DNA of 64,000 bases from Octopus vulgaris (Eukaryota): positions 114,638,001 through 114,702,000 of the forward strand of contig OX597820.1 of the NCBI GenBank assembly GCA_951406725.2, read 5' to 3'. Below the pieces are notes generated by a model that did not search any database, had not been told where the DNA came from, and saw only the letters and a list, made by a program, of their open reading frames with translations. Within the stretch, counting starts at the first letter, position 1; the number at the start of each line of letters is the position of its first letter. Below, piece after piece: positions 60,198-62,061 of this stretch. Both the position numbers and the translations under genes were made by a program.

Positions 60198-62061
60198 AGA
60201 TGTACTCGCATAGCAAGTAATTTGATCTGAGATCGTGTGCTGAAACGAAAACAATTGCAGCGTGGAGGTGTTTATAAGCCATTTAAGAAACACACAAAAG
60301 CCGTTCGATTCACTCCAACATTTAAGTTTAATTTGTCAAAATATTTTATATAAATCCGCGACCTGTTCACTGACAAAGTCTCGTGCTGATCTCACGATGC
60401 AGCACGAACTTTGTCAGTGAACAGGTCGCGGATATATTTAGCGACGAAAATATTTTGACAAATTAAACTTAAATGTTGGAGTGAATCGAACGGTTTTTGT
60501 GTGTTTCTTAAATGGCTTATAAACACCTCCCACGCTGCAATTGTTATATATACATATATATACATATATATATATATATATATACATATATATATATATA
60601 TATATATATATATATATATATATATATATATATATATATATATACATATATATATATATATATATATATATATATATATATATATATATATATATATATA
60701 TATATATATATATATATATATATATATATATATATATATATATATATATATATATATATATATATATATATATATATATATATATATATATATATATATA
60801 TATATATATATATATATATATATATATATATATATATATATATATATAATATATATATATATATATATATATATATATATATATACATATATATATGTAT
60901 ACATATATATATATATGTATATATATATATGTATACATATATGTATACATATATATGTATATATATATATATATATGTATATATATATGTATATATATAT
61001 ATATACATATATATATATATATATATATATATATATATATATATATATATATATATATATATATATATATATATATATATATATATATATATATATGTAT
61101 ATGTATATATATATGTATATATATATATGTATATATATATATACATATATATATATGTATATATATATATATATATATATATATGTATATATATATATGT
61201 ATATATATATATATATATATATATATATATATATATATATATATATATATATATATATATATATATATATATATATATATATATATATATATATATATAT
61301 ATATATGTATATATATATGTATATATATATGTATATATATATATATATATATATATGTATATATATATATATATATATATATATATATATATATATATAT
61401 ATATATATATATATATATATATATATATATATATATATATGTATATATATGTATATATATATGTATATATATATATATATATATATGTATATATATATAT
61501 ATATATATGTATATATATATGTATATATATATGTATATATATATGTATATATATATATATATATATATGTATATATATATGTATATATATATGTATATAT
61601 ATATATGTATATATATATGTATATATATATGTATATATATATGTATATATATATATATATATATATATATATATATATATATATATATATATATGTATAT
61701 ATATGTATATATAACAATTGCAGCGTGGGAGGTGTTTATAAGCCATTTAAGAAACACACAAAAGCCGTTCGATTCACTCCAACATTTAAGTTTAATTTGT
61801 CAAAATATTTTCGTCGCTAAAATCGCGACCTGTTCACTGACAAAGTTCGTGCTGCATCTCACGATGCAGCACGAACTTTGTCAGTGAACAGGTCGCGGAT
61901 TTTAGCGACGAAAATATTTTGACAAATTAAACTTAAATGTTGGAGTGAATCGAACGGCTTTTGTGTGTTTCTTAAATGGCTTATAAACACCTCCCACGCT
62001 GCAATTGTTTTCGTTTCAGCACACGATCTCAGATCAAATTACTTGCTATGCGAGTACATCT
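60198..62061. mobile_element. Nested palindromic element: two hairpin units separated by ~1.17 kb (TA)n; arms carry hammerhead-like motifs (Penelope-LTR/retrozyme-like)
   Basis: 60198-60545 and 61713-62061 are each self-complementary around a TCAC loop. The outer ends AGATGTACTCGCATAGCAAG / CTTGCTATGCGAGTACATCT are inverted. Confidence 0.75.
61877..61926 (+). ncRNA. Variant (G3:C8) minimal hammerhead-like motif; further copies at 60410-60462 (+) and 61796-61844 (-)
   Basis: The sequence parses as TTTGTCA-GTGAACA-G-GTCGC(GGATTTTA)GCGAC-GAAA-ATAT-TT-TGACAAA. Confidence 0.55.

Follow-up and report, generated by a model that had tools for sequence, protein, structure and literature searches.

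In the hammerhead ribozyme, residue 8 supplies the general acid with its 2'-OH, which is positioned by the tertiary pair C3:G8. That this pair can be exchanged has been learned from mutants and natural U3:A8 cores. The substitution G8C was shown to cost about 1e5-fold, a loss that is partly restored by C3G (PMC8495972). The minimal hammerheads of Penelope-like elements (PLEs) were uncut as monomers and weakly cut as dimers (PMC4209133); in one PLE hammerhead the C3G/G8C double mutant was partly active, and cleavage required the protein of the element (PMC11167929). Natural U3:A8 cores have been published (PMC3088659, PMC4209133), and every core in the hammerhead table of the PMC8557442 supplement, in its available part, starts with CTGA. 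A natural G3:C8 core was not found in the hammerhead and PLE literature, where this pair was met in engineered mutants only, nor was an A3:U8 core, within a partial coverage of core-variant papers and supplements.

The locus described here lies at positions 60198-62061 of a window of 64,000 nucleotides from Octopus vulgaris, the window being the whole stretch of DNA that was analysed. This genome is matched at 100% over 147 aa by a protein that its source labels Octopus vulgaris, which makes an octopus the likely host. We consider it probable that the locus holds truncated 3' ends of a young coding PLE with a natural G3:C8 minimal hammerhead, likely derived from C3:G8, for which weak self-cleavage is predicted, as a dimer and probably aided by protein.

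Anatomy of the locus

Self-comparison of the region revealed a single unit in four arms, pairwise 95-99% alike, located in two islands of about 350 bp within a TA-microsatellite (Table 1). An earlier note, made from the letters alone, had described this hairpin-(TA)n-hairpin arrangement, and its four arms, three intact motifs and damaged fourth motif were all found where it had placed them. Beyond that description, we observed an additional G that separates A9 from stem II, a U at position 17, and a 53-nt tail confined to the two outer arms (1 and 4). Arm 4 is 99% identical to the best 39 other genomic copies, and the Penelope-like family of the arms is mostly flanked by (TA)n/(TATG)-type repeats.

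Table 1. Features of the locus and its surroundings, in window coordinates
Feature	Positions	Strand	Remarks
Old decayed relative of the arms' pseudo-LTR (pLTR)	55104-55200	-	75% identity; inside another repeat
Assembly gap	58914-59013		Arm 1 is 1.2 kb away
Left flank, U2-snRNA-like 5' fragment	60102-60173	-	Ends at GGCC beside (AT)n; Rfam U2 32.4 bits, E 5e-4, under the gathering score of 46
Arm 1, 5'-truncated 3' pLTR	60198-60388	-	Tail (53 nt) 60198-60250
Arm 1 hammerhead motif, damaged	60332-60377	-	Stem II 3' strand and G12 gone; GTGAACA core 60364-60370 kept
Inversion junction of hairpin 1	60389-60399	read on +	ATCTCACGATG
Arm 2, inverted pLTR copy	60396-60544	+	No tail
Arm 2 minimal type I hammerhead motif, G3:C8, intact	60410-60462	+	Core 60417-60423; loop II with 3-nt insertion
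Arm 2 predicted cut	after U17 at 60455	+	From hammerhead numbering
Spacer, (TA)n/(TATG) microsatellite	60545-61713
Arm 3, inverted pLTR copy	61714-61858	-	No tail
Arm 3 hammerhead motif, G3:C8, intact	61796-61844	-	Core 61831-61837; predicted cut after U17 at 61803
Inversion junction of hairpin 2	61856-61866	+	ATCTCACGATG, same on + as the hairpin 1 junction
Arm 4, 5'-truncated 3' pLTR	61863-62061	+	Tail 62009-62061
Arm 4 hammerhead motif, G3:C8, intact	61877-61926	+
Arm 4 stem I	61877-83/61920-26
Arm 4 core	61884-90
Arm 4 extra G	61891
Arm 4 stem II	61892-96/61905-09
Arm 4 GAAA	61910-13
Arm 4 stem III, palindromic	61913-18
Arm 4 U17	61919
Right flank, repeat cut at GGCC	62086-62240	+	Other copies begin at least 12 bases earlier

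A palindromic GGCC next to (AT)n is the cut point of both flanking repeats (60156-60173 and 62086-62100); we take the right-flank repeat to resemble a tRNA-derived SINE. The decayed relative upstream belongs to an old hairpin, formed by a related pLTR and with damage fixed in both arms; the hairpin recurs at many loci (L053-L066) inside another repeat, so it was spread as a passenger.

The parent family and the origin of the double hairpin

When the own genome (2.8 Gb) was searched with the unit at the DNA level, 1043 first-look candidates were obtained, and 30 top-scoring and 30 unselected loci were examined. Many copies extend upstream into a shared body. A complete structure was present at locus L033, consisting of an inverted 5'-truncated copy (1629-4609), a 5' pLTR (4604-5721), an ORF (6362-8695) and a 3' pLTR reaching 9982, with the direct repeat 4604-5721/8881-9982 making up a partial tandem. 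This ORF is frameshifted and contains a 777-aa frame with reverse transcriptase (RT) and GIY-YIG endonuclease (EN) domains. A second locus, L239, carries an unbroken 1025-aa frame, the longest among 150 scored matches, with the G3:C8 motif 1 kb behind it. Both frames encode, in a single ORF, a telomerase-like RT with YVDD. The AlphaFold model of the ORF protein (pLDDT 86) had telomerase RTs as its best Foldseek matches (TERT, E 4e-7); a Pfam search of both ORFs gave 0 families. As read from the translation, the C-terminal GIY-YIG domain has CCHH and two Cys between GIY and YIG (VYQIKC..AC..YIGET..RFKEH..QH), the linker before it (CQSNCAVC) follows the CX2-5CxxC pattern with a spacing as short as in the Nematis rows of PMC8557442 (Fig. 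S2), and a DKS motif stands in place of DKG. Further traits of PLEs are present as well, namely partial-tandem pLTRs, an inverted 5'-truncated copy and a tail at one end only. The combination of RT, GIY-YIG, pLTR structure and telomerase-RT structural matches identifies the family as an endonuclease-bearing PLE, and on sequence grounds the four arms are the 3' pLTR of a young, autonomous family of this type. The Penelope origin suggested in the earlier note is thereby confirmed, the arms being the 3' end of an RT plus GIY-YIG family, and the autonomous Penelope with the same LTR that it had proposed to look for was found in the structure of L033 and the frame of L239. Its suggestion of a non-autonomous, retrozyme-like element did not hold, given this coding parent and the lack of tandem direct repeats.

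With regard to known PLE clades, the family shares with Nematis/Neptune a C-terminal GIY-YIG with CCHH, a CX3CxxC linker, partial tandems, inverted 5' copies, tails and (TA)n targets, but it has an insertion between RT3(A) and RT4(B) that those clades lack according to the available part of PMC8557442. The distance from motif A to B' is about 131 residues here (127-138 in the 12 of 22 rows with both motifs found), whereas by hand count on Fig. S1 of PMC8557442 it is about 61 in Penelope of D. virilis, 84 in one Naiad and 118 in human TERT. Naiad was rejected as an assignment by the position of the EN, which is C-terminal and not N-terminal here, and the Hydra clade by CCHH and DKS, where that clade has no CCHH and a DKT motif. 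The RT of the clade studied here (L033, L239 and the relatives L111-L148) exceeds canonical PLEs by about 70 residues between A and B', similar to the TERT insertion-in-fingers, yet it is combined with a C-terminal EN; in PMC8557442, as far as available, a TERT-like insertion is ascribed to N-terminal-EN elements only. The family may belong to an unnamed PLE clade, as this insertion co-occurs with a C-terminal EN.

Two further loci bear on how copies are inserted. L011 has a hairpin insertion with a 12-bp direct repeat on either side, likely a target-site duplication, in an AT-rich site. At L235/L236 (G000:C1:11730081-11730141) loop II belongs to different subfamilies in the two arms of a single hairpin, a hint that another RNA or pLTR can serve as template for the inverted arm.

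An inverted copy was observed within 1.5 kb at 10 of the 30 top-scoring loci, and none of these ten inverted arms had the 53-nt tail. The architecture with an inverted tail-less pLTR partner is known for PLEs (Craig et al., PMC8557442, Fig. 2 legend), and the PLE tail has been traced to two RT start sites (Frangieh et al., PMC11167929). Since such partners are routine and already described, each hairpin is an ordinary truncated insertion, and the presence of a ribozyme on both strands, which the earlier note had considered special, is a by-product of inversion. The pattern across the junction ATCTCACGATG had 2 matches in the genome, both at this locus; the private features common to both hairpins (a G>A close to the start of the unit, and a 3' end that is short) were seen in 1 of 30 loci; and tails on both strands within 1.5 kb occurred in none of the 30 unselected loci, this locus being an exception through doubling. 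These data indicate that one hairpin was copied from the other. At the outer end of each hairpin the tail is followed by (AT)n and GGCC, where the flanking repeat is cut, which suggests a microhomology-mediated duplication. A search for the empty-site pattern (U2-like end joined to SINE-like start, two GGCC required) gave 0 matches. Altogether, the locus is one 5'-truncated copy plus its usual inverted tail-less partner, doubled by local duplication or as an assembly duplicate, and the palindrome is ordinary Penelope debris.

Two other explanations of the locus were weighed. The earlier note had proposed a self-contained, non-autonomous nested-palindrome element of retrozyme type, moving as a unit with ribozymes on both strands. 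The tails that end both outer arms and the (AT)n-GGCC on either side of the insert agree with such an element, but its junction occurs nowhere else in the genome, no unselected locus repeats its tails on both strands, its unit forms the 3' end of a protein-coding family, and it has no tandem direct repeats, unlike the non-LTR retrozymes of PMC7229834. We consider this reading largely refuted and its truth highly improbable. A second explanation concerns the locus only and leaves family and motif real, namely that hairpin 1 arose as an artefact of the assembly or the consensus in the 5-kb TA-rich region by the gap; we regard this as quite possible, although we lean somewhat against it. Arm 1 contains 5 indels in 192 bases (6 in 1171 over 9 other inverted arms), the assembly gap is near, and the private features are common to both hairpins. 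On the other hand, the outer flanks differ, U2-like on the left and SINE-like on the right, which a simple fold-back would not give, and short-read contigs of run X2, from which this DNA may originate, contain the junction and the private G>A (60392-60424, depth 29.6; 60396-60433). These contigs are as compatible with one hairpin as with two and cannot count hairpins; none among the pieces listed spans the private indels of arm 1, and the left flank was skipped as repeat. The argument of the earlier note from the TCAC loops, read on the + strand in both hairpins, stands insofar as the two hairpins are not independent insertions, and it fails against an assembly duplicate, with which the arm 1 indels and the nearby gap are still compatible.

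The G3:C8 core in copies and relatives

The core GUGAACA has G at position 3 and C at position 8 and does not match the literal C3 U4 G5 A6 N7 G8 A9 core. The elements U4 G5 A6, A9, G12 A13 A14, A15.1:U16.1, H17 (= U) and G10.1:C11.1 are complete in arms 2, 3 and 4. In RNAfold predictions, stems I and II are part of the minimum free energy fold of the isolated motif and of its element context; stem III is absent from the monomer fold, and stem I is extended by a G3-U17 wobble that is possibly an inhibitory fold. Rfam scans gave no match to a hammerhead model, only low-complexity miRNA noise. Other hammerhead families of the genome have U3:A8 motifs (L045, L052, L186), with two in tandem about 360 bp from each other in L045; a hammerhead motif of the canonical form, CTGATGA, lies at window position 38523 (+).

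The GTGAACA core, whose conservation across genome-wide copies the earlier note had proposed to examine, was kept: the exact G3:C8 20-mer had 6,323 genome matches and 0 in the reversed control. A base other than G at position 3 was found in 203 genome matches, with C3:G8 in 0 of the 100 matches listed, and A or T at position 8 in 159 (73 T and 27 A among the 100 matches listed). With a slightly looser pattern, G at position 8 gave 236 matches, the 100 listed being 93 G3, 6 T3, 1 A3 and 0 C3; G3:G8 accounts for about 3% of copies. The whole motif was intact in 18 of 30 unselected copies, belonging to several loop-II subfamilies, and in older subfamilies (about 80% identical downstream) loop II is changed and the core kept. 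Variants were also surveyed in pooled contigs of four sequencing runs (three with other organism labels, one with the same label), in which depth is lower at the 5' end, where diverged contigs are clipped. This survey gave 18 variant rows, none of them in the core 61884-61890; the two in stems both lead to G-U wobble pairs, and G12>A, at a CpG site, was above 5% in one run only (12% there). The conservation within the family is mostly inheritance from few masters and not selection on each copy.

At position 8, changes to G outnumber those to T plus A (236 vs 159). The G8 state occurs only in older subfamilies, since the young loop II was present in 0 of 30 G8 copies vs 8 of 30 unselected C8 copies. 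A comparison of 31 G8 and 48 C8 rows revealed no distinct G3:G8 subfamily, as the G8 copies were scattered in the tree, with no clade and no exclusive diagnostic site. Where the partner arm of a G8 locus was visible, it had C8 in 5 of 8 cases and G8 in 3 of 8, so many G8 copies are not master-borne. T3 was enriched among G8 copies (6 of the 100 matches listed). The G8 excess may stem from G3:G8 masters, or else a short direct repeat located about 55 nt downstream, which old subfamilies have and young ones lack, may have served as template. As G8 exceeds A plus T at position 8, copies with unpaired cores may have been multiplied, in which case the ribozyme would be dispensable.

A sister family in the same genome (54% aa identity; L081-L110) has frames of up to 1312 aa with a hammerhead behind the ORF, whose core reads C3-U-G-A-U-G8-C9, followed by an extra G, GAAA and U-U. 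Its stem II differs from that of the arms' family by a compensated G-C/A-U exchange. The sister family is very young, with at least 150 near-identical copies, many of them with frames of 1310-1312 aa. A metagenome scan provided 46 loci with relatives at 24-48% aa identity, and the 21 with DNA behind the ORF were scanned (two of 23 were dropped: L135, which nearly duplicates L133, and L140, which had 7 bases) with a descriptor that is blind to positions 3, 7, 8 and 9 and to stem I and was written after the loci had been viewed. Ten of these 21 distant relatives matched (15 overlapping parses) and 11 gave no match. Positions 3 and 8 formed a Watson-Crick pair in all ten matches, which are related by descent: C:G in five (L111, L112, L116, L117, L131), U:A in four (L113, L114, L115, L141) and A:U in one (L126:2810). 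The descriptor gave 0 matches on the reverse strands of the 21 loci and 0.065 matches per set on shuffles, 15% of them paired at 3:8; applied to loci of the own genome (1.6 Mb), it returned a further 14 distinct matches, 3 of them unpaired at 3:8 and one of the G:C ones a chance match. A second apparent G3:C8 motif, at L055, was rejected as chance, being not conserved in its own repeat family. A possible degenerate second A3:U8 case lies behind the ORF of L151, and a C3:G8 hammerhead with a reversed U15.1:A16.1 pair at L111:4973.

A quick maximum-likelihood tree of 22 proteins of this clade only (SH-aLRT, drawn with midpoint root) placed the G3:C8 family as sister to the C:G family (SH-aLRT 100), the pair lying inside a group with C:G and U:A members, and the 3:8 states are interleaved over the tree. 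With G:C here and C:G, U:A and A:U in the relatives, all four Watson-Crick pairs occur at 3:8 in one clade. Position 9 is C in the sister family and in L113, which indicates that the clade tolerates core drift. The simplest reading is that G3:C8 is likely derived from C3:G8. The proposal that GUGAACA is a compensatory G3:C8 hammerhead core is supported by the C3:G8 pair that the sister family has in the corresponding position and by the pairing in all ten matches, and as judged from sequence comparison the motif is a well-supported natural core variant.

Predicted activity and comparison with known systems

In full-length partial tandems (e.g. L033), the 5' and 3' pLTRs would provide two same-strand hammerheads about 4.3 kb apart, whose palindromic AAUAUU stems III would anneal to each other; cutting after U17 would then shorten read-through RNA to the length of one unit. 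AT-rich or (TA)n DNA would be nicked by the GIY-YIG domain, and the nick would prime the RT; early termination and an inverted second copy from the inner initiation site would then result in a hairpin made of a tailed arm and a tail-less inverted arm. One such hairpin would have been duplicated locally across (TA)n via the outer GGCC microhomology, or doubled in the assembly. The copies in the window would be passive: the arms of either hairpin are predicted to fold into a duplex of about 145 bp (-270 kcal/mol), so a transcript through the hairpin would bury the ribozyme, and cleavage of these copies is improbable. The sister family and several relatives have U17 as well; its earlier presence may have allowed the G3:C8 swap, although the RNAfold prediction retains a G3-U17 wobble. 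A G3-C8 variant was reported as less active with C17 than with G17 (PMC3884650, data not shown there).

It could be argued that the likeness to a hammerhead is due to chance, as Rfam gave no match and a loose descriptor gives occasional chance G3:C8 matches, but position and architecture are the same as in the canonical hammerheads of the sister family and distant relatives, and complementary bases at 3:8 in ten of ten matches contrast with the shuffle rate of 0.065 per set, so that we hold chance to be very improbable. A true hammerhead homologue that is catalytically vestigial here, as a passenger of the pLTR or a protein-binding structure in a family that retrotransposes without cleavage, is a more serious alternative, although we consider it unlikely. 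The excess of G3:G8 copies, which are confined to older subfamilies, would fit such a loss, and so would the predicted G3-U17 mispairing. Moreover, a ribozyme-dead Poseidon_Ac (PAc) inserts normally in vitro, with no RNA-seq ends at the cut site in the available part of PMC11167929, and Naiads amplify without canonical hammerheads (PMC8557442). Against this, positions 3 and 8 have changed several times on the tree, each time to a Watson-Crick pair, and the G8 copies form no clade, have no exclusive diagnostic site and are paired in five of eight loci with a C8 partner arm. We retain a G3:C8 hammerhead with predicted weak, dimer-dependent cleavage as the probable state of the family.

A young family in which G3:C8 is fixed in about 6,300 copies, and whose sister family has C3:G8, constitutes a natural experiment, and it completes the covariation evidence, with all four pairs in one clade. 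The matched families, together with the natural G3:G8 class, make the role of PLE hammerheads in retrotransposition testable, and searches with the literal core miss whole families. A broader reading, which we put forward tentatively and at slightly less than an even chance, is that a recently active family depends on a catalytically active natural G3:C8 hammerhead in a clade that combines a C-terminal EN and a TERT-sized insertion between motifs A and B' with all four 3:8 pairs, the G3:G8 copies being perhaps traces of an intermediate. If this is true, hammerheads in animal genomes have been undercounted, as standard CUGANGA descriptors are blind to swapped cores, and some 'ribozyme-less' Penelope lineages may carry swapped cores.

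Among published systems, the non-LTR retrozymes also have type I hammerheads in short genomic repeats and have been proposed to derive from PLE pLTRs (PMC7229834; bioRxiv 10.64898/2026.07.22.740005), but they consist of non-coding tandem direct repeats of 170-400 nt, whereas inverted or single units of a coding family are found here. Perreault et al. 2011 (PMC3088659) described natural 3:8 covariation and a U15.1-A16.1 variant, which is also present here in L111. U3:A8 is the only natural swap named in the available part of that paper, where a natural G3:C8 would have been filtered, since any core change barred a match from the final alignments. Closest to the motif described here are the type I hammerheads of PLE pLTRs (Cervera & De la Pena 2014, PMC4209133), which agree with it in the pLTR position, the unpaired base after A9, the G10.1:C11.1 pair, a tiny palindromic stem III/loop 3 that implies dimers, opposite-strand motif pairs 100-700 bp apart, and the predominance of truncated single copies. 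Those hammerheads have C3-G8 or, in Cercyon of Schistosoma, U3-A8, as opposed to a G3:C8 pair with a purine at position 3, and the motif here is further set apart by a 7-bp stem I, U17 and very low variation among about 6,300 copies. Finally, PAc of the green anole (Frangieh et al. 2024, PMC11167929) resembles the octopus family in its pLTR hammerhead, its tail from two start sites and its AT-rich target; the partly active G3:C8 is an engineered rescue mutant in that element and the natural state of the family here.
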